Source of the DNA: a virus
Taxonomy: Duplodnaviria > Caudoviricetes
Direction: 5' to 3' (one strand)
Virus record (IMG/VR): IMGVR_UViG_3300037067_010363
Location: 4,609-68,608 of that record
Length of the DNA: 64,000 nucleotides
In this document: positions 11,874-54,655 of the stretch, piece by piece
Layout: the number at the start of each line of letters is the position of its first letter
Numbering within the stretch: position 1 is the stretch's first letter
The notes under the pieces: generated by a model
The model's input: only the letters and a program-made list of their open reading frames with translations
Databases searched by the model: none
Told to the model about the DNA's origin: nothing
Translations under genes and position numbers: made by a program

Positions 11874-11908
11874 AAGGGGTGAGACCATAACAGTCTCCCC
11901 CTTTTTTT
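11874..11908. terminator. Probable bidirectional terminator at the convergence of the early and late blocks
   Basis: AAGGGG(T)GAGAC-cataaca-GTCTCCCCCTT followed by a T run; sits exactly where + genes meet - genes. Confidence 0.75.
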
Positions 11909-12696: not shown

Positions 12697-12715
12697 ATTG
12701 TTATTTATTTATTGT

Positions 12716-33600: not shown

Positions 33601-36600
33601 CATATACATTTCCTTTAGCAATATTTTGTAACTTTTGATTTGATATATTATTATAACCTAATTCAAAGAGATTATATAAAAGATTAATCCCATTATTATC
33701 TTGGTCTTTTGCATATAAATAACCTTCTCCTATTTTTAATGAATTATTTTTATTAAAGTATGTCCTTTTTAAATATTCTTTAATAACATCATCGGATAAT
33801 ATTGTTGAATGTTCTATTAGATAATCTTGAATCTGATTTAAAATAATTTCATTGTTTAATATTTCTGTCTTTTGTGATTCCGGACAAGCTATATCTTCTT
33901 CAGGTATTTGCTTAGTTGGTTTTAATTGTTTCAATAATGCAACTAATTCAGGATGTTTATCTGAGCCGTCCGCTATATATTTTTTAAATAAATTTTGTAA
34001 TATTAATATTTTAGCATTTTGATGTATGTTTTTGACTTTAAAATTAAATTCTGTTGTTGTAATTCCTAATGATTTTAATTTATTTTCTAATAAGGCTAAA
34101 TTTTCTTTATTTCTATCTAATATTCCATCTATTTTATTTAACAGTTCATCAGATAATGCTACTTCTTTGCTAGATGTATGTTTCTCTAATATTTCGGTAT
34201 TTTTATTTAATGCTCTTTTTACATCAGTATATACAGAATATGATTCTAACTGTTCTTTATATTTATTTAATAAATCTTGTAATTCTTTTTTGTCTGGTAC
34301 TTCTTTAGTTATTGCTACATTAATATCATTTTCTAATTGACTGAATAATAATTCAAAATATTCTAATAATCTAGTTTCTTTTGATTTTTCATTTTGTTTT
34401 GCTTCTAATGCATTTAAATAAGTGCTTTGCACTTTTTCAATATCTTCTAAATTATTTTGTAAATCTATTTTCTTTTCATAATTTTCTGCATCAGTAGGAT
34501 CAACATATAATTCATCATTAATTTTATTTAATTTGTTTTTTATAATTCCTAACTGTTCTTTTATTTTATCACTAATCAAATCTATTTCATTAATATCTGA
34601 CATCTTTGTAATAGATAATAGTTTATCTTTTATCTCAGCAACATCATTTTCATTTGTATTTTCGTCAGGTATAGATGCTATAATTCCGTTTAATGCATTT
34701 TCTATATTATTAGAGTATTTGTTTCTTTTTTCTTTTTCATAATTGCTTATATTTTCTATTTGAATGGCTATTTCTTTTTCTAATAATTTTGTAAGAAAAT
34801 AATTATCTTTCATCGAAAGTGTCTGAAAATTTACAGCTATTTCTGCATAATAATCTTTTTTATTATCTTTAGTTTTAGTTTTACCTTCTTTTTTCCATCG
34901 TTCATCAACTACTGATTTAGCTAAATTATATGCTATATAATTACCTTTTATTCTATCATTAACATACTCGGGATTTTCTGTGCCTTCTTCTATAGATGTA
35001 AATTTCTTTATTATATCTTTAAGTCCGTCTTGATGAACTACTTTATCAGTACCTTCATATTTATAATCGAGACCATTAATTTCTTCTTCTAATTTATTTT
35101 TTTGTTCTAATAATTTTTTGTGTTTATCAGAATCTTTTTCTTCTCCCAATAAATTATTTATTTGTAGCAATTCTTTTTCTTTATCTTTAATAAGCTTCAT
35201 TGCTTTTAAATATTCAGAGCCAAAATCTACATTAGATGATACAATATTAAATAAAGCTGTATTTCCTTTACTTTCTTCATATATATCATACAAAGCATCT
35301 ATAGTTGTCTTTAAATCATAATACAGTTTATCGTTTAATGTTTCTACTCTGTTTGCATTTCTTCCCTTTTTTCCTGGAATATTAAAAGGAATATCAAAAG
35401 ATTTATCTTCATCTTTAACAATAGTTGAACCATCAGGATTTAATTTGCTTAATTCTTCATTACCTTCTTGGTATTTATTATATAAAAAAGTCATAAGGTA
35501 TTCTTTATTAGCTCCTTTATTTTCAATTATGAATTTCCTTATATCTTTTTCTAAATTATTGTTGCTATTTCTCCATATTGCACCACCAATCATACCTCCT
35601 AATCCTCCTAATACCCATGATGACATCATTCTATTTGAGAATTCTCCATATTTGTGATTATACAATCCTTTGCCATATTCAGCTTTTGGATCAGAATTAG
35701 ATTTTATAGCATTAAATATTGATTCTTCTACCCAATATCCGAATTCTTCTGTCGTTTCTTGAGTTGATTCTTTCGTAAATCCACTTGTTATCCCATAAAC
35801 ATAAGGATGTTTTTCAGCCATTACTTTTTGCCATTGAGTATCACCTTTGAGAGTTTTAACAAATCCTTTCATAAAACTTGTTGAATTTTCAAAGGTGCCT
35901 AAATTACCATCATAATTTTTTAATGATTTATTTAAGAGATTTTCAACAACTTCTTTTGCATCAGATGTTAATCCTTTTGTAAACAAATCAGCATCAATTA
36001 ATCTTTCTGAAATCGCAACCATAGGAAATGCAAACAATGTCATTAATGCAGATTCTCCATCAGTTAAGCCATTTTGTTTCGCTGATTGAAATGTCGGTCC
36101 CATCATTAACCATCCACCTATTCCTGATGCAGTCCATTTTAATGCATTCTCTGACATGCCTAACCCTTTAGTAAATAATTTGGCTGCTGTTTGAACTCCA
36201 GCAGTCATTTCACGCTGTACAATAAGTGATGCTAATACATTAGCAACACCAGCACCAAAAGCTATAGGATTATCATTCCATTCCGAATCTTCATATTGTT
36301 CAGATTTTTGAGGTCTTAATTTGTTTATAAATGCTAAATCTAAGTCTGCGTTTCTACTAAAACTACTATCAATACCTAATTTTTCTAATCCTACACCTAT
36401 CAATTTATTTACAGTAAAATACATTTGAGGTATTGCTGTTATTAAAGAATAATTAAATTCATCTAATATATCAGAAACACTTTGGTCGTATTTTGTATTA
36501 TTAACAAATGTTCCAGTTAATCCTTTAATTGAATATCTATCATCTAATTGTAGGGAAGTACCAGGTTCTACTATAACTTTACCAAATTCTTGTGTTTCTT

Positions 36601-37159
36601 TATCATATACCACATATACATCATTATTTAAAGTTAATGCTGTTTTTGGCATATTTTTGTCTTCTAACAGATATTTCGGATTCAAAGGGTCTCTCATATC
36701 TATCATAGGATTAAGCGAAGACAACTCGTCATCTGTTAACGAACTATGAAATTCCCCTGTTCTTGAATCAATAAAATCTCTATATTTAGGCATTTCAGTT
36801 ATAGAAGCTCTTTGTCTTCCATAAAATGAATAGCCGAATCCTTCTCCTAACTTTTCACTTCCTGTCGGAACAATATCTGTAATTGCATTTGGTTTAGTTA
36901 CAGATAAATAATCTTTTAATTGTAATGAAATTTCATATATTTCATTAAATTCTTTATCATCTTTAAATCTATCATATAATTCTTTATTTTCTTTGTAATT
37001 TTCAGGTTTATTAATAATAGGTTCATAGTCTTTACTCCATGATTCTACAATTTCCTTTGGTTGTAATCCTGATGTTGCTAATACTTTAAATATATCAATT
37101 TCCTTTTTAGGATTTTCTGTATTTTGATTTTGCTCTGTATTTTCTGTTCCATTACTCAT
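21653..37159 (-). CDS. Giant virion RNA polymerase-containing polyvalent protein (5168 aa)
   Basis: RIPTS (about 25175-25187) and DSDFDID (DFDID at 25058-25072) match the crAss vRNAP catalytic motif. Also SF1 helicase-like motifs (GKFGTGKS about 33275-33298, IIFDES, VGDTSQ, YTAFGR), two HExxH zincin motifs (30236-30250, 22064-22078) and N-terminal Gly-rich hydrophobic helices. Confidence 0.85.
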   Translation of the reverse strand: MSNGTENTEQNQNTENPKKEIDIFKVLATSGLQPKEIVESWSKDYEPIINKPENYKENKELYDRFKDDKEFNEIYEISLQLKDYLSVTKPNAITDIVPTGSEKLGEGFGYSFYGRQRASITEMPKYRDFIDSRTGEFHSSLTDDELSSLNPMIDMRDPLNPKYLLEDKNMPKTALTLNNDVYVVYDKETQEFGKVIVEPGTSLQLDDRYSIKGLTGTFVNNTKYDQSVSDILDEFNYSLITAIPQMYFTVNKLIGVGLEKLGIDSSFSRNADLDLAFINKLRPQKSEQYEDSEWNDNPIAFGAGVANVLASLIVQREMTAGVQTAAKLFTKGLGMSENALKWTASGIGGWLMMGPTFQSAKQNGLTDGESALMTLFAFPMVAISERLIDADLFTKGLTSDAKEVVENLLNKSLKNYDGNLGTFENSTSFMKGFVKTLKGDTQWQKVMAEKHPYVYGITSGFTKESTQETTEEFGYWVEESIFNAIKSNSDPKAEYGKGLYNHKYGEFSNRMMSSWVLGGLGGMIGGAIWRNSNNNLEKDIRKFIIENKGANKEYLMTFLYNKYQEGNEELSKLNPDGSTIVKDEDKSFDIPFNIPGKKGRNANRVETLNDKLYYDLKTTIDALYDIYEESKGNTALFNIVSSNVDFGSEYLKAMKLIKDKEKELLQINNLLGEEKDSDKHKKLLEQKNKLEEEINGLDYKYEGTDKVVHQDGLKDIIKKFTSIEEGTENPEYVNDRIKGNYIAYNLAKSVVDERWKKEGKTKTKDNKKDYYAEIAVNFQTLSMKDNYFLTKLLEKEIAIQIENISNYEKEKRNKYSNNIENALNGIIASIPDENTNENDVAEIKDKLLSITKMSDINEIDLISDKIKEQLGIIKNKLNKINDELYVDPTDAENYEKKIDLQNNLEDIEKVQSTYLNALEAKQNEKSKETRLLEYFELLFSQLENDINVAITKEVPDKKELQDLLNKYKEQLESYSVYTDVKRALNKNTEILEKHTSSKEVALSDELLNKIDGILDRNKENLALLENKLKSLGITTTEFNFKVKNIHQNAKILILQNLFKKYIADGSDKHPELVALLKQLKPTKQIPEEDIACPESQKTEILNNEIILNQIQDYLIEHSTILSDDVIKEYLKRTYFNKNNSLKIGEGYLYAKDQDNNGINLLYNLFELGYNNISNQKLQNIAKGNVYVYVINYLCQLKGVSVNEINIIRSEVFDNNITPSTEEQKESENTIVSFLNTNSSPLEIALELEKENFDKKATAAEKTFYHKYNKDKSTKNINIHIKNTLNLRGKFGTGKSVQILVNALIYNKLYKQKNNTDSKMKILLAGLSNEVLDNTGNSLSKYFDMFKDEKTLKTKEAFLDAIRNDPSSLTSNDIIIFDESSILSLDELMEIKEALKDYKGRLILVGDTSQMFDITQNDSIRYGERTGLRTIPLTKVFSNSDPIINILIEQWVETWTISYMGYGKEVMPNMYHDGQRGVKYVEGDTSNTAIEKVINEFINSKDGVLVFINEKQYAQYKDKVKLSDYPGRIFVLQQEKINNQIPSIQGLRKSNIFLALDFLELKNNPEKYELYPASIKALFYTAFGRLQSFGSLTLPGMNKYNLVDKPKWWIDDIDKEKLRSEEEKEKSRIAVLEDENILLKKIIYEKTTTSGKSEYSVGQYVKYNNGKVGLITEISEDGTIILENKDEITIPKIYIDGTATKDDYDKYKESLKPKKENLPSLTDNTLSDLNINDLTHNYKSKDYRLIKNDTYLFEGKEVEIIAFSINTKKDIIIRLNNGKDVPINEFLDNIEYHDESPEIEVYTVANRIASNLKDINVVWGSSYTIIIDIGNKTILTISEKEFLKLKRELNRLISSKFSDKLEVHYLNDVQLIDAEKRDSALAIYYNGTKEDLLRAIYEDDPQNAKLYNYVDENFDTNQELLRYVSVLKDVETDYPSENGKKKIIENWDDDNIQGTIDNGFELHPNLKELNKKLAELRKNGYDQAKHKNGPINLGPIEVAQTEIIDGNTIFDFNNYETERVEEFKTRMKEKYPAIKFGNIRTRKIKGIVNIIMQYSVIGNDISNSSPYVILNNQKINGDILLEKIQDDLSTISNLSKQEFTTQIFNSLSVIQIIKQNKSKFENTSTAEIIKLFNKYFKFENNQIKRKGKISELTATRIFLTELQKLMQIDASKQEATMLYDSISLDRMSKNKSGEISDLDIEKLTIGKKTDIHHPSYFYILQENKNGVRAATVAFNRRRMSLAQYGYAKQEALNIVKELLGEEWVDRVITRDKLTHDGIDLFGMVLNGKIYYELTKMGIDKPTVRHEIFHVIFKYYLTKEEQQTLLKEVNNITGITDITDAEEWMARKFGRTDKNVKTGIIRRFFDWLENIVSKWFYHSTKLTELYEMINSGSFVNKTPHFELSNTVAYNIKGDLDIEGSDAILDDEVSNDKRSKHENQKLKYSHLSKYFGNDVERVKTSLSRTCLSFSYLGRSMDQDVGSIEEVINKVKNHYSSFRLLGVKIVKEYNKQLSELTYTEAKSAKDSNVLQDYFAYHVSFDDVIDPILNEIFEVKHDDVALYDKSKFNADRQISNNLKMFMEGVPYYTYTVGFSNGKITSIKNNGWDNSSYCSPKEIKYILYAITDSLNLELNNSSRNSYEDKFAKVLYNYAISLQPNTPRFNAAMSLLERMYGLPDIVNGYSSLSLKNLKKNTNIPERKVAIENFMTHIICNFMNLHEASVVKIEMEYNHALHKKVANIIRLSKNDDEMFKNFLKDNIENNIFDINGDLRNHIISKIDKNNKYRKFNVKQDGVYYNVKGKEIKILEYKKDDNNRIKAFFTDEYFKYNETYAKEILALFGLKKSISLITFNDLLKDNKEIQFELLKKVPNYKSQNEKEDAKNFMAESISAMFLTLQYYYNETKVKVDLDNDLKNNNISIVEYKNKLSELEYVEDLIDSYYSKLGEKAIVDPMSKIILNENTEILDEVKTIHKPTDLYRFLTFLANREISNRPDDKLMFIYRVDNTKEYKYQLRDDLNKFEEYGSSIIEEEISRIDMSDIDNSKYFDANGKPLYDYLDKSSSTRLYRVNKFTGISSNKSVVSPNTHDAIITFNELFYTSLVKSASDKVETLSVLLDNISDKTKIYEAVFTIDGTGNERLFNVVLDKHKISKVIINYKVLSKHLDKIFDRYERNRVVSINRWKVFIKKLSENGILTSDELILLANPELFEKDNIKMFETTLYSFIQNIKSNKEKYNNFIYEAKKYLHGNEDFVMTKKFGEEYFLLGYATSMNSEVKAEINGKEYGLREYDKIFNTWTYNKWKSLDNLESKIKYIEQLFKNEYNRHISAYYNNNVIVSEDVAKLTGQESPFFNKDKSVNDYFKAQYWAYFLNAQNFNPIFWGDRQEYSSQLDENKRKHTFVTPKNKLVPDTENGVSSKMKYIVVDDEGINKEKYINDPVTGKKVRIADGQMVGNPIANRFIIKSFGGFENAPTGKQMYKTMANYTDYATGERHIIKHADDVITSDTYNDNYLYRLYMEDILLTWDKECFIDANNKFVNYNISLLDIFNSKMKELNDLDLVADYMFDYINNINDPRLKGIIKNNMIWGFQYKSGVKSYETGINQYDFTGVNRNMNLVTRTLNSKEIGLVLNPNQDVEETKNVQVMHQLLSFIGSNNKENSQIAERIFKAFSKIYEKEIEPIKEEMNKNFDEYVRNLSLNSINRSKYSGSLAEVLNNKELSIQIPQYRTAIVQLLRNYLTSRSLRQKMYGTRLNQASGYGFKLFENDNETLTIKDIENRLGRRFTNKELVDIVNSGVYQDYKVRDLESMQSGDNTMKQAEVFVSFSYFKNFELEKGETLTDALTIHYKDKSGKYGTLLIKDSKFTPEMEEFLKDKTLLDERSNIFLRKIYYKENNKKYVKANNEANQLVLDDFNKSISDPIYEDRTNLKRFISKREFDDFDILRAKIEYANAKGYIYNEEEDAFYIPENLADKINISYNPIEYMKQYYKALDKALDMFLVRIPTSRLGYGAKARIKGFVQDNGNNIYIPLGLTVLNDSDFDIDQLSAYFKYISNNLTYNEVRDENGTLKDIDEINTYEELQDYILESIYDIYNNKENHKAILIDSNIDDLRSIVDMPLHEIKETDEYKALSKEEQNEFDKQKNNYKYLRSGTFATFVENYHASSTASDTISIFAKSLSTISYMLQITDINEFKKILPGFAFIENMLLETGNNGIPLRIGDYLQIALDNAKEMLLGEYGINETNASLVTILILHGWSNIKIKTYLNSPAIKQVFSKSQKGENIDNKKKDYQIKDIIEDTLASLMSLDQSSIDKALTKKNQLIDELDTLYSVIDVTQKEISEYRKSKEKNKKEVKEKKYFDEEERQRYIEQANQLEISLEDKIDNIIEKSIEIDDNSLLDKIIAIQDEINKMNEIINSQESINSLNTLSQYLDEGAFIKRFGDIISLRNGIKVNDYEFERDIFNYELSIGSLLENYDAFNWSLEKHIEFFKEHSTEYLRADNLERRRASNSNGPRDTKLTNKIIKREIDIAKLGNIKALVQKFPHIENGLKLCAFEKQSNTEHWDINNKVFKQIEQVYLNSMELRTWDFQSRRIKFYNNIMEIFKDVYFKSLKNKNVDLSFLEFNEILGEPVKNIVGLSNIDLSDSKGRKLYSKCLPEFMKEFLNDIQDMSYSEMIKKYKQIDLTSNDLSLLKNSSFIKKLEIIGQDTSERLILRNSAAINEQDMQLYQDEFAKFTPWLKTLFQHYEIIQHNLKFKNGSIMHVMGIDWLTEFSDSIKATRMNLKDKNFVTTISEKLLRAIQFSDQGSVIHGQNESILSEPGESLHEVKRIKIKDTGARYNYMREYFTFLEGFGYDKDNAFWLLNKEIDTDINSQSNITDIELTRIFSGFELAKIKTMLPGQIISHTFHNGYTYMNEQEVITETGDILKVIWKTTSVCEFKKVGKNNESLQILEKIENLKKNSQFSLDELKTFEGIKLNRDAVRLLINHISNKIKDVTIVETNDEEVKRLYGDDVKARAFVLKGVVYINTDRVLSTDFIHELTHMWEKALKEVNPRKYSQLRNDAIELINNNNPIVLSIKEKYKQNRISLNLESLISEVIATIAGFQSEENVRDFLMNNNRYEFKDKKIVSELWSLFKMYENSLNDSLRYLFGDTVENELLYTKENIENDLKSKGLQIIC

Positions 37160-41183: not shown

Positions 41184-44100
41184 TTAAAAATTACTTATTT
41201 CAAAATTAGTAATAATATTTTTAATAAACACTTCATCCGTTCCTAAATAATTAATATTTATTTTCAACCATTCTCCTCTCATTTTACTTTCTTCCATAAA
41301 TTCATATCCTTCTATATAAAATTCATTATCAGGATTAGTTTGTGCTTGAATAGGGAATTTCCATTTTCCTTCATTGTATTCCGGAGCCAACCAAAATCTA
41401 ATATCATTAACATCAAAGTTATCATGTAATCCTTCTTGTTTTAATGTATAATATCTTATTTCAGAAAATCCTGTTTCAGATGCTTCTATTTCTAATGAAT
41501 CAAATCTCTTTGAATACATAGATAATGATGGTCCTCCATTTACTATTACAGAAATATCAAAATTTCCTAATATATTATAAAATGTTTGTCTTTCTCCTAC
41601 ATCATGTAAATAAAACATATTAGAATTATAATAATTACCTACATAATAAAGGGAATATAAGTCATTATTAATATTACCATATAAAGGGGTATAAAATGAA
41701 TATTTTGTTGTAAATGAATCTATTAATTCATTAAATGCTAATGTTTCATTATAATCTTCATACATAATGCTAAATAGTACTTCATTATATTTTCTATCAT
41801 ATCCTAATGATAATCCTTTATTTCTATAAGGAGTATCTTGTATTTTTTGAGTTATATCTGTTAGTTCTTTAATGCTTTCTAAAATAGCATATACTTCAGT
41901 AGATAACATATTTTTCAATGTTTCATCCTGTTGCCTCATATTTAAACTGATTCTTACTATTGCTCGTCTATTCCAATCTAATGAATATAATCCATTTAGA
42001 CCCTTTACAATACCTCTTTGATGTTGGCAACCATATTCTGACAAAGAACTTACTTGTTGTTCTAATCCAGTTGATGTTCCAACTTTTAATTCATATTCAT
42101 TAGTAGGTATTTGTAATTGTCTTTGATCTGTATAATGAAGATTTATTTGTCTTTCTTGATATGATATTAATTTGCCAGATAAATTATCTATTTTTACAAT
42201 ATCTCCAAATATTTTATTATAATCTTTATATTGCATTATATCAATTTTTCTGAAAGAATCAACAAAAGCAGTTGATACATCTACATCAGAATATCTTATT
42301 CTTGTATTATAATGTATTTCGTGATAATCAATATCTTTATTATAAGCAGAATATTGTTTAAATGTAGATGTAATACTATTACCGAAATTTACTAACAAAC
42401 TTTCTGTTTTATCAGCAGTATCAGGATTATAAACAGCAAATGATTTTAAACCATCTTCTTTACATTTAGGAAAAAATGTTCTATCTTTTTGAGAATATCT
42501 AAATGATGTATTAATAGCATTTTCTGATATTATTTCTATTACTAATCCATGTCCATCACAAATTAATGGTTGATCATCATTACTTTCTCTACAATCTTTC
42601 TCTGCACCATTAATAATTGTCAATTCATTTCTTGTTGCTTTTAAGAATGTCTTTCCTCTAAATGACATTTGTTTAATATATGTAGATTGAAGATAACAAT
42701 CACCTTTAAAAATAAGCTTGGTTGATGTATTTTCAAAAGCTGTAGTAGAAGATGGTATGTAATTAATTAATTCTGATATTTTATAATATTTTGTATTTTT
42801 CAAATCAAAATAATTAACTAATTGTGATGAAGATATAGTTGCAGGATTAATCTTATATAAACTGCATAAAGATAAATTTATTCCTTCTTTATGTTCATTT
42901 AATGTCAATCCAATATATTTACTTGTACTCATACTTCTATTAGATGCTCCTTCTAATCTATCTTCTGAAAGAGTAGAATTTACTTTAAACCAATACCACA
43001 TACAAGAACTTGTACTTGAAGGATCATTAGTATTTATATCATCATATCCTAAATCTGTATATTCTGATACAAACCCATCTAATGCTTTCTCAGGTAAAGA
43101 ATATTTTTCTATTATAGAATATTTTATATTATCAATATATTCATGTTCTTTAGCATTAAATTTATGTATATCTGATTTATACCACATAGGATATACATCA
43201 TAACCATATTTATCTAAATCTGTTTCTAAATCTATTGGATTAATCCAATCATCATTATCTTTTGCAGGATTATAATTTTCTATATAATCTAAATGATAAT
43301 GACTGCTTAAATAATTATTATCAGGACAGAATGACATAGGATCAAATATATTGTCTGTAGAAAATAAACCATATTTTTTTTCTACATAAAAACATCTTGA
43401 CATATAATTCCTATTTACTTTTCTTCCGTCATCAGCTTTTAAATGCACCATTGTATTAGGTAAATATCCTTTATAAATAGGCATTACTAATTCATCATCA
43501 TTATATATTATTTCATTATATAATGTTCCATTAACTATATCTTTTTTACCACCTGGTTGTAGATTTTCTAATTTCCCTCTACATGCTCCAAAATATGAAC
43601 TTTCAGCCTGATCTTCTGTAAACTTACATCTCGCTTGACCATACCATCCAGAATATATAGAATCATCCCAATATATTTTAGTAAATTCACTCACAGATGT
43701 GTTAGTATCAGTAGAATCTAATGTATCTTCTGTATCAGTATTTAAATCATATAAAAATTCCGATTGGCCATATTGTAATATTCCAAATGTTTTTGGTTCA
43801 TCGCCAACATCTTTAGCAGGAAAATAAAAATCATCAGAAAAATAATATGAACTTTCAGGCTTACATATAAATAAATTTTTACATTCTTCATATTGTTCCA
43901 TAATACCATCATAATGTATTGTTGAATCATCAGTATTATCTAAAAATCTATATCCTCTACAACCATACATTAATAATCCTTGATATGTCATATTCTTAAA
44001 TCTATCACCTCTTACATAATAATAGCCTATAATATTTTCATCAAAGAACTTTTTTACATCTACATTACTTAAAACATAATTATTAGCTATTGTATTATTA

Positions 44101-45644
44101 AATTTTAATGATAAAATATTTAACTTTTTATTTTTTGTATAATTTGTATCATATAATTTCTCTTTATATATAGAAGGGAATCTTATTATACCTTCTTCTA
44201 CTTCTGTATTTGTATTATAATAATCATATCCTGATGTTTGATATACTTCTGAATGTAATCCACCTTTAAATACATACACTATTCCTACAGGATATATCTC
44301 AGACCTAAAATAACCTACCTTATTTAACATTGAATCAACACTCCTATAACCATTCAATGTAGTTAATTTAGTTGATACATCATAGTTAGGAATGATTAAT
44401 TTAGCATATTCTATAAGATAATCATTATATGTATTTATTTTGTAAAAATTTGCACCAAAATATTTCCTATTTAAAATAGTATGAGTTTTCCATGTTAATT
44501 CTTTATTTTCAGAATTTATTATTTCTGTATCTGAAATATTTAACATAGTTTCATGACCAGTTATTATAATATCTAATGTATCATCTTCTATTTTAAATAG
44601 TTTATCTACTAATTTACTTTCATGTAAAACTACAGTACTTTCTCCACTATAATATCTTACAATAGCAAATTCAATAAACTTATATCTTCTATCTATATTA
44701 TATAATGTAAAATGAATTCTTTTATCACTATTATTTGATATTGTTGTTCCCAACTGTATTACTTCTTCTCCATGTATTCCCTCTATAGATGTTATGTCTC
44801 CTTCATCACCATTATAAATAGGTATTGGACCTATTTCAGTTATAAATGATGTTCTATTAAAATTATCATTAATATATCTACAAAATAGAAATATATTACC
44901 ACCTTTTAAACTACCACCTTTTTCTAATCTAATATTAGATATTCCATTATCATATATTGTAGGAATATTATTTACTAAAGGAATATGACTAACTATATTA
45001 GGAAAATATTCTTTATCATAATATTTTTCTGTTAATTGTCCTTTCTGATTAAATCCGCTATTTACAACTGAATTATACGTTAATTTACCATTAAGTTCAA
45101 ATCCTGTTATATAAAGATTTACAGAATTATCATATTCTTCATAAGTTAATAATTCGGGAGGATAATTAATGTTTAATGTATATCTATCTGTACCTACTCT
45201 GAATACTTCTCTTGTTGGTGTTATTAATGTTATATCATCATAATAATTTACAAAAGGTTTATATTTCTGTTCAAATCCTTGTATTGATGTATTAATAGAT
45301 AATGATACATCATCTTCAGGAATTTCACCATATGTTACTGTTATACATGCAGGAGAAGGGAATGAACCAAATTCCACTTTTCTTAATTGTTCTGATAATG
45401 ATATTATATACAAAACACCATTATATTCTTTACATGCTATTGCAACGAAACTTTCTGATAATGTTATTCCAATATTTTTATCAGGTTCATAAGCATTACC
45501 AACAACATTAGTAATAATTAATCCTTGACCTTCTTTATTCATTATTCGGGCATTTAATGTAGGGAAATCCCACATATCATTTCCTCTTTTAGAGTAATCT
45601 AAATCAGTAACAATACCTTTATGAAAAACATTTATATTCTGCAT
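41184..45644 (-). CDS. Muzzle / tail stabilisation protein (1486 aa)
   Basis: NVFHKGIVTDLD...LNAR start, FRSEIYPVGIVYVF, YNTRIRYSD and beta-propeller-like C-terminus typical of crAss muzzle proteins. Confidence 0.75.
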   Translation of the reverse strand: MQNINVFHKGIVTDLDYSKRGNDMWDFPTLNARIMNKEGQGLIITNVVGNAYEPDKNIGITLSESFVAIACKEYNGVLYIISLSEQLRKVEFGSFPSPACITVTYGEIPEDDVSLSINTSIQGFEQKYKPFVNYYDDITLITPTREVFRVGTDRYTLNINYPPELLTYEEYDNSVNLYITGFELNGKLTYNSVVNSGFNQKGQLTEKYYDKEYFPNIVSHIPLVNNIPTIYDNGISNIRLEKGGSLKGGNIFLFCRYINDNFNRTSFITEIGPIPIYNGDEGDITSIEGIHGEEVIQLGTTISNNSDKRIHFTLYNIDRRYKFIEFAIVRYYSGESTVVLHESKLVDKLFKIEDDTLDIIITGHETMLNISDTEIINSENKELTWKTHTILNRKYFGANFYKINTYNDYLIEYAKLIIPNYDVSTKLTTLNGYRSVDSMLNKVGYFRSEIYPVGIVYVFKGGLHSEVYQTSGYDYYNTNTEVEEGIIRFPSIYKEKLYDTNYTKNKKLNILSLKFNNTIANNYVLSNVDVKKFFDENIIGYYYVRGDRFKNMTYQGLLMYGCRGYRFLDNTDDSTIHYDGIMEQYEECKNLFICKPESSYYFSDDFYFPAKDVGDEPKTFGILQYGQSEFLYDLNTDTEDTLDSTDTNTSVSEFTKIYWDDSIYSGWYGQARCKFTEDQAESSYFGACRGKLENLQPGGKKDIVNGTLYNEIIYNDDELVMPIYKGYLPNTMVHLKADDGRKVNRNYMSRCFYVEKKYGLFSTDNIFDPMSFCPDNNYLSSHYHLDYIENYNPAKDNDDWINPIDLETDLDKYGYDVYPMWYKSDIHKFNAKEHEYIDNIKYSIIEKYSLPEKALDGFVSEYTDLGYDDINTNDPSSTSSCMWYWFKVNSTLSEDRLEGASNRSMSTSKYIGLTLNEHKEGINLSLCSLYKINPATISSSQLVNYFDLKNTKYYKISELINYIPSSTTAFENTSTKLIFKGDCYLQSTYIKQMSFRGKTFLKATRNELTIINGAEKDCRESNDDQPLICDGHGLVIEIISENAINTSFRYSQKDRTFFPKCKEDGLKSFAVYNPDTADKTESLLVNFGNSITSTFKQYSAYNKDIDYHEIHYNTRIRYSDVDVSTAFVDSFRKIDIMQYKDYNKIFGDIVKIDNLSGKLISYQERQINLHYTDQRQLQIPTNEYELKVGTSTGLEQQVSSLSEYGCQHQRGIVKGLNGLYSLDWNRRAIVRISLNMRQQDETLKNMLSTEVYAILESIKELTDITQKIQDTPYRNKGLSLGYDRKYNEVLFSIMYEDYNETLAFNELIDSFTTKYSFYTPLYGNINNDLYSLYYVGNYYNSNMFYLHDVGERQTFYNILGNFDISVIVNGGPSLSMYSKRFDSLEIEASETGFSEIRYYTLKQEGLHDNFDVNDIRFWLAPEYNEGKWKFPIQAQTNPDNEFYIEGYEFMEESKMRGEWLKININYLGTDEVFIKNIITNFEISNF

Positions 45645-46285
45645 TATCTTATTTCATTTAAATGATATAAAGGAATTTTATTCATATTAGGTATCATATT
45701 TAATACTACATTCATAAATCTTCTCATATCATCATTAGATTCATGCCTAACACCATTATTAGCTGCTTCGCATTGTATTGTTTTCTGTTGATCTAAATAT
45801 TGCCATTGTTGACCATTAATCTTTCCGGTTAAATAATCTTCAAAATATAATTTACAAGCACAATATGCTTCACAAGCTAATTCATGTCCTTTCATTATCA
45901 AAGGATACCCTGTTTTACTATCTACAGCAATACCATAATAATTTATATATACTACATTTTGACCTAATTCATCTGTTTCAAAGACAGCATCGGATGAAAA
46001 TATAATATGACTTCCATCATTATAATAATTAGTAATTCTATTATCATTACTATCATAAACATCTAATAATCTATATACATTACATGGTAATAATGCTTTA
46101 TAATTATTTACAATTAATTTAATCCTATTATAATCATACATAGAAATAGGATTACCTATTACTTCTATAACACATTCAGAACACCATTGTACGATTTCAT
46201 CTATATTAAATGATTTATTTTTATGCATCATAGATAATCTCGCCATAATGTTTTCTGCTGTTACATATTTATTATTTATTCCCAT
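45644..46285 (-). CDS. Tail ring (tubular) protein
   Basis: YVTAENIMARL...IVQWCSEC...YKALLPCNVYRLLDV...INYYGI; directly upstream of the muzzle. Confidence 0.7.
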   Translation of the reverse strand: MGINNKYVTAENIMARLSMMHKNKSFNIDEIVQWCSECVIEVIGNPISMYDYNRIKLIVNNYKALLPCNVYRLLDVYDSNDNRITNYYNDGSHIIFSSDAVFETDELGQNVVYINYYGIAVDSKTGYPLIMKGHELACEAYCACKLYFEDYLTGKINGQQWQYLDQQKTIQCEAANNGVRHESNDDMRRFMNVVLNMIPNMNKIPLYHLNEIR

Positions 46286-47158: not shown

Positions 47159-47797
47159 CTATTTTATTGTTTCTAACCCATCTCTTGAATCATTCAATTC
47201 ATCTTTTGGAATCTTTGGATATGTAGTTAAAATATCTTGTTTTACTAATAATTCTAATTTATAAACATCGGGACTAGGATATTGATTTTCATCATCCCAA
47301 TTACAAGCAGTTGTTGGATCATTTAATATACCTACTAAACACAAATATTTTATTCCTGTTGTTGGTAAATTCTTGTAATATATTTTATCATTTAATACAG
47401 TATAAATAGGTCGTGTAGCATAAGATAAAGCATTCCCTATTTCAAATCCTGTATATGAAACCCTTCTAAATGATGTTGACATATCAGATAACCCTAAATA
47501 TGAAATATTCTTATTACCTATTTTTGTATTTAATCTAGGTATTTCGGAATAAAATATTACATCTCCTGATGGTATTCCTTCGCATTCTGTTCTTTCACAA
47601 AGTACCTCAATACAACATAATTTTTGCATATATGATTCTAAACTTTTTCCTTGTTTAAAATCTTCATCTATTAATTTAGCATTAATATCATTTATTTTCT
47701 TTACAATCCATTCTAAAGGTATTTCATTATCATCTGTTATATGATACCCCTTTATAGATTCTAAAATCGAATATGCTATTTCTTTTAATGTTGCCAT
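47159..47797 (-). CDS. Tail ring protein
   Basis: MATLKEIAYSIL...TDDNEI...WI...I; C-terminal YPSP..YKLELLV...I.K.ELNDS pattern of crAss ring proteins. Confidence 0.7.
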   Translation of the reverse strand: MATLKEIAYSILESIKGYHITDDNEIPLEWIVKKINDINAKLIDEDFKQGKSLESYMQKLCCIEVLCERTECEGIPSGDVIFYSEIPRLNTKIGNKNISYLGLSDMSTSFRRVSYTGFEIGNALSYATRPIYTVLNDKIYYKNLPTTGIKYLCLVGILNDPTTACNWDDENQYPSPDVYKLELLVKQDILTTYPKIPKDELNDSRDGLETIK

Positions 47798-49440
47798 TAA
47801 TTAGATACTTTATTAATAGTTAATATTATTGAAGGACATAATGGTCTATCAGGTCCAATTTGTGCAGCTGTTGATTCTAAACTCAGACTTGTATCATCTG
47901 ACCAACATTGTAATTGTATTGTTTGTCCTGCTGTTAATACTTCTACATATGTAACTGTTATAACTCTTTGTTGGTTAGTTCCAACAAATTTAGTTATAGT
48001 ATTAGATGCAGTTACAGCAGAACCATTAATTAATAACCATATATCTAATAATTTGTTTGGTGCGGATGATTGTGCTATTACACTATACGTTATAAGATAT
48101 GCTCCTGCATCTGTTACTACAAATGTTGAATCAGTTGCTTTTGTAATACCTGATGAATAAAATTGGTTATTACATGTAATAGGAAATGTTTTAGACGCAT
48201 TATTTATTGCTTGATCTATATCAGAATACCATGAACCATACGGAAAAGGTATATTTGAATTAGTTGTAGCATTTAATGAACCAGTAAAATAATTAGCTGT
48301 TGTTGATGTATTTCCTATAGTTACTGTATTTGTTCCATGTCCTGTTACTCCATCACCTCCTATAACAACTTCATTTTCTGTTGAATCTGCTCCTGCTCTT
48401 GAACCTTTGCCTATATACACACAATTAGTTGCATGAGATAATAAATCAGTTCCTGTTTCTAATTCTCCTGCCTGAGAACCTATTGCAATATTTCCACCAC
48501 CATTTATATTATTTATTAATGATTGATAACCTAATGTAGTATTATAATTTCCTTCTTCTGCATAATGCATTGCATACCATCCTATTCCAACATTTTTAAC
48601 TCCTGTAGTTATACTATCTCCTGAATGAATACCAACAAAAATATTTTGTCCATTAAAATAATTAATAGGCATATATCCTATTAATGAATCATGTATTCTT
48701 TCTTTAATAGTATCTTCTACTACCGAAGATAAGTAATAGTCCGCAAGAGTGTCATTGATTTTAGTTGCTAAGTAATAATCTGTTAATGTATCATTTATTT
48801 CTATTTTTGTATAATAACTACCTAATGCATCAATAACATAATCATCATCAATTAAAGAATCTCCATAAACATATATAACATTCTCGCTGGATATTAATAT
48901 TGTATCTATTGATACTTTATTTGCTCCTAATACATCTATAGTTAAACTATCCATAAATCCATTATCTACAACTATATTTTCTCTTACTAAATATGTTGTA
49001 TCTGAACTATGAGTAATATAATTATTAATTGAATCTAATATAGTATTATCTACATATTCATTATCTACTAATGTATCTCCTAATACTTTTATTACATTAA
49101 TAGAATTTATATTTATAGTATCAGTATTTATCTTATTACTTATAATAACATTTATATCTGCACTATCCGCTTCTATTTTTTTGTCTGTAACTATTTTTGT
49201 TCCAACAATAGTCCAATAAGAACTATCTTGTATTGTTGTATCTAGAAATCCTCTTAGATATGCAGGATTAATTAATGTGTCTGAACATATCTTTGTAACA
49301 GTATCATTACCTAATACAAATTTCCCTGTTCCTGTAACAGTTAAATTATTTGTAAATCTATTTGTACCAGGATAGTATTTCACTTGACCATAGGATAACA
49401 TAGATATAAACAATAACAATATGAATATTAATTTTTTCAT
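47797..49440 (-). CDS. Signal-peptide-bearing fibre/adhesin-like protein (YadA-head-like repeats, C1q/BclA-like C-terminus)
   Basis: MKKLIFILLLFISMLSYG|Q signal; NVGIG/NTTLG/NIAIG/VYIG/VVIG/VTIG repeats; GAYLITYSV...IWLLING...LTAGQTIQLQ jelly-roll-like end; 18 D-(S/T)-(A/L/V/I/T) motifs. Confidence 0.7.
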   Translation of the reverse strand: MKKLIFILLLFISMLSYGQVKYYPGTNRFTNNLTVTGTGKFVLGNDTVTKICSDTLINPAYLRGFLDTTIQDSSYWTIVGTKIVTDKKIEADSADINVIISNKINTDTININSINVIKVLGDTLVDNEYVDNTILDSINNYITHSSDTTYLVRENIVVDNGFMDSLTIDVLGANKVSIDTILISSENVIYVYGDSLIDDDYVIDALGSYYTKIEINDTLTDYYLATKINDTLADYYLSSVVEDTIKERIHDSLIGYMPINYFNGQNIFVGIHSGDSITTGVKNVGIGWYAMHYAEEGNYNTTLGYQSLINNINGGGNIAIGSQAGELETGTDLLSHATNCVYIGKGSRAGADSTENEVVIGGDGVTGHGTNTVTIGNTSTTANYFTGSLNATTNSNIPFPYGSWYSDIDQAINNASKTFPITCNNQFYSSGITKATDSTFVVTDAGAYLITYSVIAQSSAPNKLLDIWLLINGSAVTASNTITKFVGTNQQRVITVTYVEVLTAGQTIQLQCWSDDTSLSLESTAAQIGPDRPLCPSIILTINKVSN

Positions 49441-49922
49441 AAACTTAAATTTTTAATGTCAATAATTTCAAAACTACAAGACTTTGTATCATCTGATAAT
49501 GTAATAGATAATTTTATTTTTCCTGAATTATATAAAGCAGAAAAAGAAATTGCATCATAATCAACATCTTCTTCTGTTCCAAACAAAGTTCTAACTAATT
49601 CACTAACAACAACAGTTGATGTATCTGTTTTTACAACTTCTATCTCTCCTGTAGCTATACCATCACCTCTTTCAAGATAATATCTTAAATATACCATTTT
49701 AGAAGGTATTGTTGTTAATACCATTAATGATGTAGTATCTCCTAATGAAATATCTAATGTCTTAGTATAACTCTCTAATACGTGCTTATTAAGATTATTA
49801 TCTATCTTAGTTAAAGCATTATTATTTGATGAATCAAATCCTACAAAAAAAGAATTATCACATATCTGTCCTTTTCTAAATTTTGTAAAATCTACCGTTG
49901 CAAAATGTAATAAATTACTCAT
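49437..49922 (-). CDS. Hypothetical beta-rich structural protein
   Basis: 161-aa ORF coupled to the fibre gene by an ATGA overlap. Confidence 0.6.
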   Translation of the reverse strand: MSNLLHFATVDFTKFRKGQICDNSFFVGFDSSNNNALTKIDNNLNKHVLESYTKTLDISLGDTTSLMVLTTIPSKMVYLRYYLERGDGIATGEIEVVKTDTSTVVVSELVRTLFGTEEDVDYDAISFSALYNSGKIKLSITLSDDTKSCSFEIIDIKNLSL

Positions 49923-51414: not shown

Positions 51415-52173
51415 TTATTTTATTTGTTTACGTATTAATTCTTCTTGTATAAATGATTGCCATCTTGGATCTTTTACTCTTTCTAAATATACTCTTACTG
51501 CTATATCTATTATTTCTTTTTGTATTTCATGATTAAATTCACAAGGAGTTCCTTCCTCCCCAGGCACAAATACAATATCATTTGGTCTTCTTAAATATTC
51601 TATACGCATTGAATACCCAATACTATTTGTTCCTGTTATCAATCTAATTTGTCCATTCAATATTTCATAATATAATCTAGCATCTGTTGGTTTTCTAAAA
51701 GGATTATCCATTATAACATTCCTTAAATCTGACCTCATTATTTTAGCATCTAACCAATCAGATATTCCTGTTAATTCACATTCATTCTCACTTCCATATT
51801 CTATTTTAAATGCTACATTTAGTAGTCTATAATAAGGAGGATATGTTTGTGAATCTTCTGTACCATCTGGTTGTCTATTTACTATATCATATGTATATTT
51901 AGGAATTAAAAATAAATAAGAAGTTGTTGGAGCAATAGGATATATAACATCTCCATTATAAGAAAATTCTCCATCAGTAACTACTCGAATTCTTTCTAAA
52001 TCTTCTATTTGTTTCTGATTTAATTCAATAGTTAAACAATTCTGTTTCAACCATTCATCTTGTCCCCAATCATTAATGATACGGTTAAATTGAGATGGTG
52101 TAACTATAGATGTAGAATTTTTCTTTATCCCATCTAAAAACGCTCTATATATATCCTCTGCTGTTTCTAACAT
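51415..52173 (-). CDS. Tail ring / head-tail adaptor protein
   Basis: TPSQFNRII...QDEW...DL; NPFRKPT...Y.IEYLRRP...CEF...IQKEIIDIAV pattern. Confidence 0.7.
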   Translation of the reverse strand: MLETAEDIYRAFLDGIKKNSTSIVTPSQFNRIINDWGQDEWLKQNCLTIELNQKQIEDLERIRVVTDGEFSYNGDVIYPIAPTTSYLFLIPKYTYDIVNRQPDGTEDSQTYPPYYRLLNVAFKIEYGSENECELTGISDWLDAKIMRSDLRNVIMDNPFRKPTDARLYYEILNGQIRLITGTNSIGYSMRIEYLRRPNDIVFVPGEEGTPCEFNHEIQKEIIDIAVRVYLERVKDPRWQSFIQEELIRKQIK

Positions 52174-53218: not shown

Positions 53219-54655
53219 TTAACTATTATAATCTCTAAATATTCTTGTAATTTTTGTTCTACAAATTACTCCTGTTTGGAATAAGAAATGTACTGATGTT
53301 CCATCAACTGATGTTGCCATTCCTTCACCTCCCTTATTAATACCATTAATAGAACCCATTGTAGGCTTTCTTAACTGTACTAATTCAATTTGTCTGTCAC
53401 CTCCATTTGTTACACCTAGAGGAACAAGAAATCCTTCATGTGATGCTAATGAAGTACCATCAGATAATCTTTTGGTAGGAACATCTACAGAATCATAATA
53501 AGCATATCTTTTAGGAATAACTCTTACACCATCAAATTCATAATAAGAATAAGTATCATTTATTCCTTTATCTGCTCCATCGCCTACTATGTTTTGATTC
53601 ATAGTAATTCCATATTCACGCATTACTGATGAAAATCCAGATGTTACTTCTTTACCTCCGATTAGAGCTACTTCTGTAAGACCATCTTCTCCAATTCTTA
53701 AATCAATATCTTTCATTAATTCTTGTAAGAATTTCTTATTCCATTTTACATAAGGAAAATCATATGCTCCATCTCCTTGATTTAAAATACCGGAACCTGC
53801 AATAACTTCTCGTCCAAGTTTGTCATGCAATAATACTTTTCCATCTTCTGTAACAGTACCTTGACCAAAGATATTATCATGTTCTGCATATTTTGCAGCA
53901 CGCATCATCATTTGTTCTTCTGCTTCTGTTAAGAAACCTTTATTGCCTTTATGAATATACCATTTCTTATTTTCTTTCATGGCTTCTGCTGTTCCACTAT
54001 AAGAATATTTGACTCTTTGTAATGTTAAATATGAATGTCCCCATGTAGGAAATGTGTATTTTTCATTTGCAGTTTCAGAAAAATCATGTTCATAAGCTGT
54101 AGATATAGGCATACATTCACTCTGTGATGCTAACAAGTCAGTATTAACATAATTGTCATAAGAATTTGTTTTTAACTTAACTTCATATCTCCACACTCCT
54201 TCTGCTACTTCTACAGGTAAATTTGGATCGTAAACATATAATTGTGTCCTATTATCATTCAATTGAATAACTTCTTTAGGACCAATCCAATTACTATCTG
54301 TATAAATATAAAATGCTGATTGGTTTTTCCCTGGTTGTGTTGGATATATATTACTATCAAAAGTAACTCCATCGACATTTTCTACTATATGAACTTTCCT
54401 TAAATCAGATGCTGGAATAGCATACATGATATGATTAGAACCTACAACTCTAATTTTATTAGTAAATGTAGCTTCTGTTAGATTTCGTGTTTTTAAGCCT
54501 TTCAAATTAAGCAATGAGCTTAATGGTGATTCCATTTCCTTTATTGAATACAATGTAGGAAGAATATCTGGATCATTAATTGCATGAGTAATAAAATGAT
54601 AACTACTTATTGACTCATTTGAAATTTGTGGTGCATAACCTGGTAATAGTCTCAT
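53219..54655 (-). CDS. Major capsid protein
   Basis: 478 aa; STAYEHDFSE...TLQRVKYSYSG...G.GILNQ...GYEFDGVRV.PK pattern of crAss-type MCP; canonical position after portal and scaffold. Confidence 0.85.
   Translation of the reverse strand: MRLLPGYAPQISNESISSYHFITHAINDPDILPTLYSIKEMESPLSSLLNLKGLKTRNLTEATFTNKIRVVGSNHIMYAIPASDLRKVHIVENVDGVTFDSNIYPTQPGKNQSAFYIYTDSNWIGPKEVIQLNDNRTQLYVYDPNLPVEVAEGVWRYEVKLKTNSYDNYVNTDLLASQSECMPISTAYEHDFSETANEKYTFPTWGHSYLTLQRVKYSYSGTAEAMKENKKWYIHKGNKGFLTEAEEQMMMRAAKYAEHDNIFGQGTVTEDGKVLLHDKLGREVIAGSGILNQGDGAYDFPYVKWNKKFLQELMKDIDLRIGEDGLTEVALIGGKEVTSGFSSVMREYGITMNQNIVGDGADKGINDTYSYYEFDGVRVIPKRYAYYDSVDVPTKRLSDGTSLASHEGFLVPLGVTNGGDRQIELVQLRKPTMGSINGINKGGEGMATSVDGTSVHFLFQTGVICRTKITRIFRDYNS

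Follow-up and report, generated by a model that had tools for sequence, protein, structure and literature searches.

According to the current view, tailed phages assemble their particles entirely within the cytoplasm, and to our knowledge glycosylation of virions is known only where the phage itself supplies the transferases, as in actinobacteriophages. In BclA, the nap glycoprotein of the Bacillus anthracis exosporium, an elongated stalk below a trimeric C1q-like head is multiply O-glycosylated. Substrates of the general O-glycosylation system of Bacteroidota, for example the S-layer proteins of Tannerella forsythia, combine a Sec leader with the sequon D-(S/T)-(A/I/L/V/M/T). Such motifs are nearly fully occupied in non-cytoplasmic proteins, and engineered motifs are glycosylated as well (PMC12871550). 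The Q-rule, a Gln at position +1 of the leader, is a trait of the Bacteroidetes and is seen in Ignavibacterium too (PMC5837995).

Leaders of this kind also occur in phage genes. Prophages of Porphyromonas gingivalis encode proteins of unassigned function whose leaders obey the Q-rule and which were proposed to be modifiers of the host envelope (PMC10367356). The Cellulophaga phages phi18:3 (gp085-087) and phi46:3 (gp079-083), members of the Pachyviridae (KC821620, KC821622), encode large late proteins with classical leaders and Gln at +1, and GenBank annotates phi18:3 gp085-087 as structural 'based on experimental MS/MS proteomics analysis'. In PhicrAss001, the fibres gp21, gp22-26 and gp29 are trimeric or dimeric and dock with their N-termini onto hubs or hexon pockets (PMC10172136). 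Here, we analysed a gene of a crAss-like phage for which an earlier note had proposed Sec export and dense O-glycosylation of the encoded fibre-like protein by the host. The note knew of no phage described as using this pathway; likewise, no paper describing phage proteins as substrates of Bacteroidota O-glycosylation was found in our literature search.

Results

The window, i.e. the whole stretch of 64,000 nucleotides under analysis, belongs to an uncultured crAss-like phage. On the minus strand it encodes a crassvirus major capsid protein (53219..54655; Pfam Crass_capsid, E 2e-17; phrog_11589), a tail ring protein 3/4 (51415..52173; Pfam CrAss_Ring_3_4, E 1.4e-6; BLASTP match to crAss001 gp35, E 1.6e-5), a tail ring protein 1 (45644..46285; Pfam CrAss_Ring_1, E 4e-20) and a muzzle protein (41184..45644). 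The latter was assigned by a syntenic orthologue (L002) matching Pfam crAss_MUZ and by a weak BLASTP match to crAss001 gp44. PHROGs of portal and TerL were matched in the window as well, and capsid, ring proteins, muzzle, portal and terminase follow the conserved order of the Crassvirales. The target is a fibre-like late gene within this structural operon (P0001, 47797..49440, minus strand, stop codon included), for which ORF list and translation give a product of 547 aa. It is syntenic in three further crAss-like contigs. Among 50,697 phage records searched by tblastn, the sole match was to the head, at 27% coverage, in a Limnohabitans phage, and megablast of the capsid region gave no match. 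The Crassvirales gene set and the Q-rule leader of the target suggest that the phage infects a Bacteroidota host.

The ATG of the target overlaps the stop codon of the upstream gene as ATGA. This overlap is preserved in all homologous contigs compared, and the two genes are translationally coupled. The upstream gene (49437..49922, minus strand) encodes a protein of 161 aa with a predicted beta-sandwich resembling the C-terminal domain of T4 gp9, the long-tail-fibre connector (PDB 1qex). A pLDDT of 70 was reached by one AF2 model of five; the model matched 1qex in Foldseek (E 5e-5) and T4 gp9 in VIA (Z 10.3, rmsd 3.1 A across 111 residues). The downstream gene (47159..47797, minus strand; 212 aa) occupies the place that ring protein 2 has in the gene order of crAss001, which suggests this assignment, and its product weakly matches phrog_9863 'virion structural protein' (E 5.5e-4). 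BLASTP of the neighbours of the target against the crAss001 tail-hub proteins THA, THB and R2 gave no match, so that the idea of a 'tail-hub slot' is based on gene order alone. Other fibre candidates of the same phage, which are leaderless, are located at 11908-13909.

The C-terminal residues 396-547 (47800..48255, minus strand) are confidently predicted to form a jelly-roll head of the C1q/TNF/BclA_C fold. The match to Pfam BclA_C (E 7e-8) reached 32.8 bits, under the cut-off of 38 bits. AF2 modelled the head with a pLDDT of about 97, and Foldseek retrieved BclA as the best structural match (3tyj/1wck, E 4e-10, TMt 0.64-0.65), then ExsFA, C1q and TNF ligands. The adhesin head proposed in the earlier note is thus supported by AF2 and Foldseek, as a C1q/BclA-like domain. 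The encoded fibre-type protein is probably trimeric. The head is preceded by a Gly/Asn-rich repeat module (residues about 260-395; 48256..48663, minus strand) with matches to phrog_4636 (tail spike) and phrog_23837. Relatives of these repeats number thousands, with multiple copies and in some cases a Peptidase_S74 chaperone domain. Repeats of this type are common in tail-spike and fibre proteins.

At the N-terminus, a putative Sec/SPI-type signal peptide covers residues 1-18 (49387..49440, minus strand). It consists of MKK, a hydrophobic core of 12 residues and S-Y-G, with Gln19 as predicted new N-terminus. Twelve hydrophobic residues after two Lys are a textbook Sec leader. A hydrophobicity heuristic, direct reading and conservation were used to judge the leader, which has the Q-rule layout: the n-region is positive, the h-region hydrophobic, positions -3 and -1 hold small residues, and +1 is Gln. 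Such a leader, with small -3/-1 residues and Gln at +1, is present in all five homologues; the n/h/c pattern and the Gln are preserved in P0002-P0005, where P0004 and P0005 read G-F-S before the Gln. The signal peptide claimed before looks real. AF2 places a helix at residues 2-15. The leader is not of the lipoprotein (SPII) type, since residues 1-51 lack Cys, and a type IX secretion CTD (TIGR04183/TIGR04131 type) found no NCBIfam match at E <= 1 in the target protein. Met14 would provide an alternative start, and the ESM Atlas contains a form beginning at residue 14; in P0002 this position is Ile.

Residues 19-80 (49201..49386, minus strand) form a conserved N-terminal module, the most conserved block of the alignment and a candidate docking module. 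P0002 is 95% identical to the target, P0004 and P0005 are 45-62% identical. P0005 has the N-terminal half, including this module, in common with the target and a different C-terminal domain. Position in a structural operon, together with a conserved N-terminal module and an exchangeable distal domain, is the layout of a fibre. When all cluster representatives were scanned with HMMER, the N-terminal half was recovered in P0003-P0005 only; P0032, considered as a shaft relative, was rejected on reading as a spurious low-complexity match. The scan of viral contigs with the N-terminal half yielded no relatives, the scan of species-representative genomes with the head alignment no confirmed locus, and the sequence search of solved structures nothing relevant. 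The ESM Atlas returned unnamed clusters and weak fibre-family leads only.

The shaft (residues 46-277; 48610..49305, minus strand) holds 16 of the 18 D-(S/T)-(A/L/V/I/M/T) motifs of the protein. This recount agrees with the earlier note in both numbers and in the tripeptides listed. The motifs follow each other at spacings of 8-25 residues, with a mode of about 15. Composition-preserving shuffles, 20,000 in number and none reaching the observed count, averaged 3.5 (sd 1.8) motifs in the 547-aa protein and 2.4 (sd 1.4) in residues 46-277, corresponding to an excess of 5-6.5 times chance (z about 8-9). Enrichment over composition-matched controls, the check that had been suggested, is thereby found. 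Of the 29 Asp in the shaft 17 are followed by S/T, again as counted before (binomial P(>=17/29) = 1.8e-6), and 16 of these 17 pairs continue with an allowed residue (binomial P(>=16/17) = 2.3e-5); D[ST] with a non-allowed residue occurs once versus 3.1 expected. Within the shaft, control motifs occur at the frequency expected by chance: E[ST]phi is absent (0), N[ST]phi and the reversed motif are found 2 times each, and permuted motifs 2-3 times. As head and repeat module contain just 2 sequons, the excess is limited to the shaft. Among about 55 ORFs of the window the target is the sole outlier (3.3 motifs per 100 aa, z 8.3), the others having z < 3; neighbours without signal peptides indeed have far fewer motifs, as had been stated.

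At the third position of the motifs the residues rank L > I > T > V = A > M, which comes near the preference published for glycosites of Leu, then Ile, then others (PMC12871550). The flanking contexts of 54 motifs were heterogeneous. Recent duplication was considered as origin of the motif copies and rejected: no DNA repeat exceeds 41 nt, and the repeats found are about 70% identical. The shaft is composed of 15% Ile, 12.5% Asp, 10% Thr, 8% Val, 7% Tyr and 0.9% Pro. With so much Ile, Val and Tyr and so little Pro, it is probably folded and not a disordered Ser/Thr/Pro linker, so the 'mucin-like' character ascribed to it has to be given up. In the AF2 monomer the pLDDT is < 50 across residues 21-395, and in this low-confidence model several motifs precede short helices (at 217, 230 and 243).

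The sequons are kept in divergent homologues. All 20 D-S/T-x tripeptides in P0004 and 21 of 23 in P0005 are sequons, and of the aligned sequons 11/12 and 13/15 are kept in the two proteins. Identity is 83-87% in the sequon columns, compared with 52-60% in the remaining columns of the shaft (Fisher p 0.005 and 9e-6). As judged from these alignments, the sequon enrichment is under purifying selection, and the conservation asked for by the earlier note is present. The test is equally compatible with structure or glycosylation as the cause; conservative S/T and L/I/M swaps fit both alike.

A comparison of proteins with and without leader, likewise suggested earlier, linked leader and sequon excess among the relatives. 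Among 157 domain relatives, observed/expected motif counts were 1.49 with leader plus Gln and 1.06 without leader, and 12 leaderless IMG/VR fibres with the same head had sequons at chance. L019, also with this head, is enriched (9 versus 2.2), and a Q-rule leader appears if a TTG start is used. L020 has the same head and a leader yet 0 motifs. A further protein with leader and the same head (P0145) is encoded last in the tape-measure tail module of an unrelated phage type.

Discussion

In our assessment the chances are even that the target is an exported fibre whose shaft is glycosylated by the periplasmic O-glycosylation system of the host. From the sequence we infer export, cleavage, glycosylation and the host phylum. 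The unfolded protein would cross into the periplasm of a Bacteroidota host via Sec, and cleavage of the leader would expose Gln19. The general O-glycosylation system of the host would then load glycan onto many Ser/Thr of the shaft, so that glycans sheath the fibre but leave its binding head bare. Docking on particles may follow at or after lysis, by way of the conserved N-terminal module and the gp9-like neighbour; alternatively, the fibre may act free or on the cell envelope. Association with the virion is slightly favoured. The complete route, in which the receptor-binding fibre of a tailed phage would mature outside the cytoplasm by Sec export, pyroglutamate formation and a host O-glycan sheath on a sequon-array shaft, followed by joining of the particle at or after lysis, is possible, if doubtful. 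Against the exported, glycosylated fibre it counts that we know of no way for a protein in the periplasm to become part of a tailed-phage particle, and that a homologous contig fell into the bin of a Melioribacteraceae MAG. The possible structural role of the repeat, the leaderless fibres of crAss001, the low sequon numbers of the leader-bearing phi18:3 virion proteins and the alternative start at Met14 count against it as well. No characterisation of O-glycosylation in the Melioribacteraceae is known to us.

It is unlikely that the motif is purely structural, i.e. that D-(S/T)-hydrophobic recurs as a cap or turn in a trimeric shaft and is kept for folding, the sequon match being coincidental and not under selection, and glycosylation incidental or absent. 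The fibre-like period of about 13-15 residues, the composition expected of a folded shaft and the short helices following the motifs at 217, 230 and 243 in the low-confidence AF2 model speak for such an element; a buried core position would likewise favour Leu or Ile third, and the conservation would be the same. However, Asp is never swapped for Glu or Asn, although Asn is abundant and caps or turns are usually tolerant. The sequon-allowed Thr and Ala do occur third, whereas excluded residues are found in 1/17, 0/20 and 2/23 cases. The heterogeneous flanking contexts also argue against a structural element, as do the 12 leaderless fibres that carry the same head without an excess, the sole enriched relative having a Q-rule leader. 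Should the protein be exported in a Bacteroidota host, its motifs would, going by published work (PMC12871550), be glycosylated in any case. An exported and glycosylated protein might also stay off the virion and mask receptors (superinfection exclusion, or protection of progeny from debris), stick to surfaces or serve as a soluble decoy, which we regard as unlikely. Known exported proteins of tailed phages, such as exclusion lipoproteins and spanins, are not virion parts; with neither a type IX CTD nor a lipobox found, the periplasm is the default location, and leaderless fibre candidates exist elsewhere in the phage. The Q-rule proteins of P. gingivalis phages, proposed as envelope modifiers (PMC10367356), fit such a role as well. 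Yet the gene is translationally coupled inside a ring/hub block of tail genes next to the gp9-like neighbour, and a constant N-terminal module combined with interchangeable heads at the distal end (P0005) is how particle-anchored fibres are laid out. The same head tops ordinary leaderless phage fibres, the leader-bearing phi18:3 proteins were detected by virion MS/MS according to the GenBank annotation, and P0145 occupies the usual slot of a receptor-binding protein behind the tape-measure module.

That the protein is never exported appears quite improbable. With a start at Met14, or with an N-terminal docking helix in place of a leader, it would be an ordinary cytoplasmic fibre that never meets periplasmic glycosylation. 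This would agree with the fact that all characterised tailed-phage fibres assemble in the cytoplasm, and with the location inside a structural operon. The crAss001 fibres dock via their first 26-58 residues (PMC10172136), and the ESM Atlas form starts at residue 14. But these docking N-termini are not hydrophobic, whereas the N-terminus of the target is that of a textbook Sec leader. Position 14 is Ile in P0002, the order of MKK, hydrophobic core, small residues and Gln is maintained in P0004 and P0005 at 45-62% identity, and the ATGA overlap with the upstream stop is conserved. Without export the sequon excess would be left without explanation.

If the exported, glycosylated fibre is real, host Sec and the periplasmic O-glycosylation system would serve as a new maturation route for a virion protein or phage effector. 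Phage infectivity would be tied to a pathway that nearly all Bacteroidota hosts possess, and virions, if the fibre joins them, would bear host-type glycans, with protease resistance or a 'self' coat as a result. This could explain part of the difficulty in predicting receptor-binding proteins of crass-like phages. As the pattern also occurs in an unrelated tape-measure phage, it may be a general habit of Bacteroidota phages.

The target shares sequon and putative Sec leader with the established substrates of Bacteroidota O-glycosylation; it differs from them in being phage-encoded. Its motif density of 5-6.5 times chance compares with about 1.5 in domain relatives with leader plus Gln. The P. 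gingivalis Q-rule proteins belong to temperate phages, were not described as fibres and were not linked to O-glycosylation. The leader proteins of phi18:3 and phi46:3 come from another phage family, have no sequence similarity to the target and are sequon-poor (0-2 each versus 1.3-4.2 expected; phi18:3 gp085-087 1 each versus about 3). Export of a phage fibre thus does not itself require sequons, since leader-bearing virion proteins of phi18:3 have few of them. The PhicrAss001 fibres, from the same phage order, lack hydrophobic leaders and, at lengths of up to 850 aa, contain 0-5 sequons, and their genes adjoin the portal gene, whereas the target gene is located inside the ring/hub block. The proposed overall design is shared with BclA, the two heads having about 20% sequence identity. 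However, BclA has a collagen-like GXT triple helix as its stalk, glycosylated by dedicated enzymes in a Gram-positive spore former, whereas the shaft of the target has no collagen repeats and would make use of a periplasmic en-bloc system.

Genomic context of the target gene

Pfam and PHROGs matches identify the window as part of a crAss-like phage. The parent IMG/VR virus contig comprises 68.6 kb, of which the window covers 64 kb, with ~25% G+C and an estimated completeness of 77%. Pfam matches place the crass major capsid protein at 53219-54655, ring protein 3/4 at 51415-52173 and ring protein 1 at 45644-46285; PHROGs matches add a crass-type portal and large terminase. By synteny, the 1486-aa gene following ring protein 1 is assigned as the muzzle protein; its orthologue on another contig matches crAss_MUZ. 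A single 5168-aa ORF (21653-37159, minus strand) lies after the muzzle and cargo genes and greatly exceeds in length the genes for virion RNA polymerase in cultured crassviruses. No tRNA genes were found by ARAGORN across the 64-kb window.

The target ORF (547 aa; 47797-49440, minus strand) is flanked by a 161-aa gene upstream and by a 212-aa gene; the corresponding stretch of PhicrAss001 carries the tail-hub and ring-2 genes. The target start codon overlaps the upstream stop (ATGA), and gene order and overlap are identical in three further contigs. Elsewhere on the minus strand, adjacent genes of 262 aa (11908-12696) and 397 aa (12716-13909) have their N-terminal 93 residues in common (47% identity) and then diverge. 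The latter has a weak tail-fibre PHROG match, and the pair probably represents paralogous fibre genes without leaders that share an anchor region.

The target carries an excess of O-glycosylation sequons behind a putative signal peptide

The count in the earlier note was reproduced: the target has 18 D-(S/T)-(A/L/V/I/M/T) motifs, 16 of them in residues 46-277 (48610-49305), where 17 of 29 Asp are followed by S/T. In 20,000 composition-preserving shuffles, the expectation was 3.5 ± 1.8 for the whole protein and 2.4 ± 1.4 for the region, and the observed value was reached in 0/20,000; the comparison with composition-matched controls, which that note had called for, thus gave a clear excess. Given the composition, the frequency of S/T after Asp has P = 1.8e-6, and an allowed residue after 16/17 D-S/T has P = 2.3e-5. 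Control motifs occurred at chance level (E-S/T-hydrophobic 0, N-S/T-hydrophobic 2, reversed 2, permuted 2-3) and D-S/T with a non-allowed residue was depleted; among the motifs compared, enrichment was specific to the sequon alone. As had been stated, neighbouring proteins are sequon-poor: the target is the sole outlier of ~55 window ORFs (z 8.3; others z < 3). It is also the sole large protein among them with an obvious leader.

Residues 1-18 comprise MKK, 12 hydrophobic residues and S-Y-G, followed by Gln19. Since Cys is absent, the leader is not of the lipoprotein type; by its sequence it follows the Bacteroidetes Q-rule, with Gln at +1. High Q-values were reported in > 99% of the species of Bacteroidetes; the figure for Ignavibacterium album was 77% (PMC5837995). 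The homologues P0004 and P0005 (45-62% identity) have an equal leader layout, ending in G-F-S before Q. In one database the target is stored as a form starting at Met14 (codon 49399-49401, minus strand), a Met inside the leader with a counterpart, Met11, in P0004 and P0005. Such an internal start could in principle yield a leaderless cytoplasmic isoform. Met14 is not conserved, since the 95% identical homologue P0002 has Ile at this position; because of this Ile14, and because leader features are conserved in the codons upstream, the long form was taken as real.

The sequons are maintained in homologues

The N-terminal half of the target has only four relatives among 1.8 billion cluster representatives, all on syntenic crass-like contigs. 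Sequons are kept in these homologues, as 20/20 D-S/T-x tripeptides in P0004 (a 309-aa fragment with 20 motifs) and 21/23 in P0005. Of the motifs that could be aligned in these two, 11/12 and 13/15 are still sequons, and identity is 83-87% in motif columns vs 52-60% in other shaft columns (p 0.005 and 9e-6, Fisher test). Whole shaft blocks were gained or lost between homologues, and P0005 combines an N-terminal half as in the target with an unrelated C-terminal domain, in line with the modular habit of phage fibres generally. The 54 motifs from three homologues have heterogeneous flanks, and no position is fixed beyond D, S/T and the third residue. The third-residue tally (L 34, I 9, T 4, V 3, A 3, M 1) is near the published ranking for glycosites, which runs L, I, V, T, A, S, M (PMC12871550). 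No tandem array was seen in the shaft DNA, where direct repeats are at best ~40 nt long and 70-73% identical; together with the heterogeneous motif contexts this rules out the motif copies as a by-product of recent duplication. The sequon excess is real, strong and evolutionarily maintained.

Sequon excess tends to go with the leader among relatives

The target-type head caps 14 proteins on IMG/VR contigs. Twelve are leaderless, with sequon counts at or below chance (z -1.7 to 1.1), and one, on contig L020, has a Q-rule leader and 0 motifs. The only enriched one, a protein with a C1q-like head (L019:1295-2368; IMG/VR UViG_3300042288_001089), has 9 sequons vs 2.2 expected (z 5.1). Read from a TTG four codons past the preceding stop, it has a leader ending in S-F-G before Q and, if this start is used, would be a separate instance of a leader combined with an excess of sequons. 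Across 157 relatives of the repeat and head modules, observed/expected was 1.49 with a leader and nearby Gln vs 1.06 for leaderless proteins (Mann-Whitney p 0.04 for all leader-like vs leaderless proteins). Nearly all of the strongest outliers have a leader: P0140 (21 vs 6.4 expected), P0144, P0116, P0055 and P0092. With 5-6.5 times the chance count, the target family marks the far end of this trend.

P0140 (804 aa; L006:487-2901, on a 3-kb contig) combines a leader ending in V-F-S before Q with a target-type head, and adds many D-S-S and D-T-S to its canonical sequons. The protein also contains an extended series of short Tyr-x-Asp-Ser-x-x-Val-Ser-type repeats. P0145 (784 aa; L023:8001-10355, on a 51-kb Logan SRR31020874 contig) has a leader ending in G-Y-G before Q, a target-type head and 8 sequons vs 3.5 expected. 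Its gene is the last in a tape-measure (TMP_2) tail module on a contig unrelated to the target's phage; therefore, fibres with a leader also occur outside the crass-like phages.

Predicted structure of shaft and head

The proposed adhesin-type head was borne out by the predicted structure, in which residues 396-547 form a C1q/TNF-type jelly roll (pLDDT ~97). Its best structural match is the BclA C-terminal domain (E 4e-10), followed by the exosporium proteins ExsFA and BxpB, C1q domains and TNF ligands; the Pfam BclA_C score is slightly below the cut-off. Residues ~260-395 are Gly/Asn-rich repeats common to thousands of fibre- or tail-spike-like proteins, some with an endosialidase-chaperone domain. 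The shaft was modelled at pLDDT < 50 (monomer, five sequences). A "mucin-like" stalk does not fit its composition: 15% Ile, 8% Val and 7% Tyr with < 1% Pro suggest a folded fibre shaft rather than a mucin-like coil.

Export, glycosylation and location of the fibre

The most economical reading is export plus a glycosylated shaft: the target would be exported, and the host general O-glycosylation system would then act on the shaft Ser/Thr of the sequons. Nearly full occupancy has been published for sequons of non-cytoplasmic proteins, and engineered motifs become glycosylated as well (PMC12871550). That the target is exported and its shaft a dense array of acceptor sites is an evenly balanced proposition. 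A purely structural role of the motif, set against its association with leaders among relatives, is unlikely. A target that is not exported, as a Met14 start would give, appears least probable, the leader being conserved. Export towards a non-virion role is slightly less likely than the structural explanation; it retains the glycosylation claim and differs only in the fibre's later function.

Several observations favour association with the virion. The target is translationally coupled within the tail genes, its head is common to ordinary fibres, and P0145 lies at the usual place of receptor-binding proteins, the end of the tape-measure module. The upstream 161-aa neighbour (49437-49922, minus strand) has an all-beta AF2 model, reaching pLDDT 70 in only one of five models. 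From residue 47 to 161 this model resembles the long-tail-fibre connector of T4, gp9, in its C-terminal domain, with Z 10.3 and 3.1 A rmsd over 111 residues; the neighbour may be a docking partner of the fibre. The cultured Cellulophaga podoviruses phi18:3 (gp085-087; L008:1892-7584) and phi46:3 (gp079-083; L007:30343-38945) have runs of 3-5 large late proteins, all with a classical leader and Gln at +1. For those of phi18:3, the GenBank entry reads 'structural protein, annotation based on experimental MS/MS proteomics analysis'. Against virion association, the leader proteins of both phages are sequon-depleted (0-2 each), PhicrAss001 fibres have no leaders, and the target's phage has further, leaderless fibre candidates (11908-13909). 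Moreover, a type IX secretion domain was not found in the target, so its default location would be the periplasm, and we know of no mechanism for incorporating a periplasmic protein into a tailed particle.

Among the papers searched, none was found that ties phage proteins to the Bacteroidota O-glycosylation pathway; the nearest remark concerns Q-rule proteins encoded by prophages of P. gingivalis (PMC10367356).
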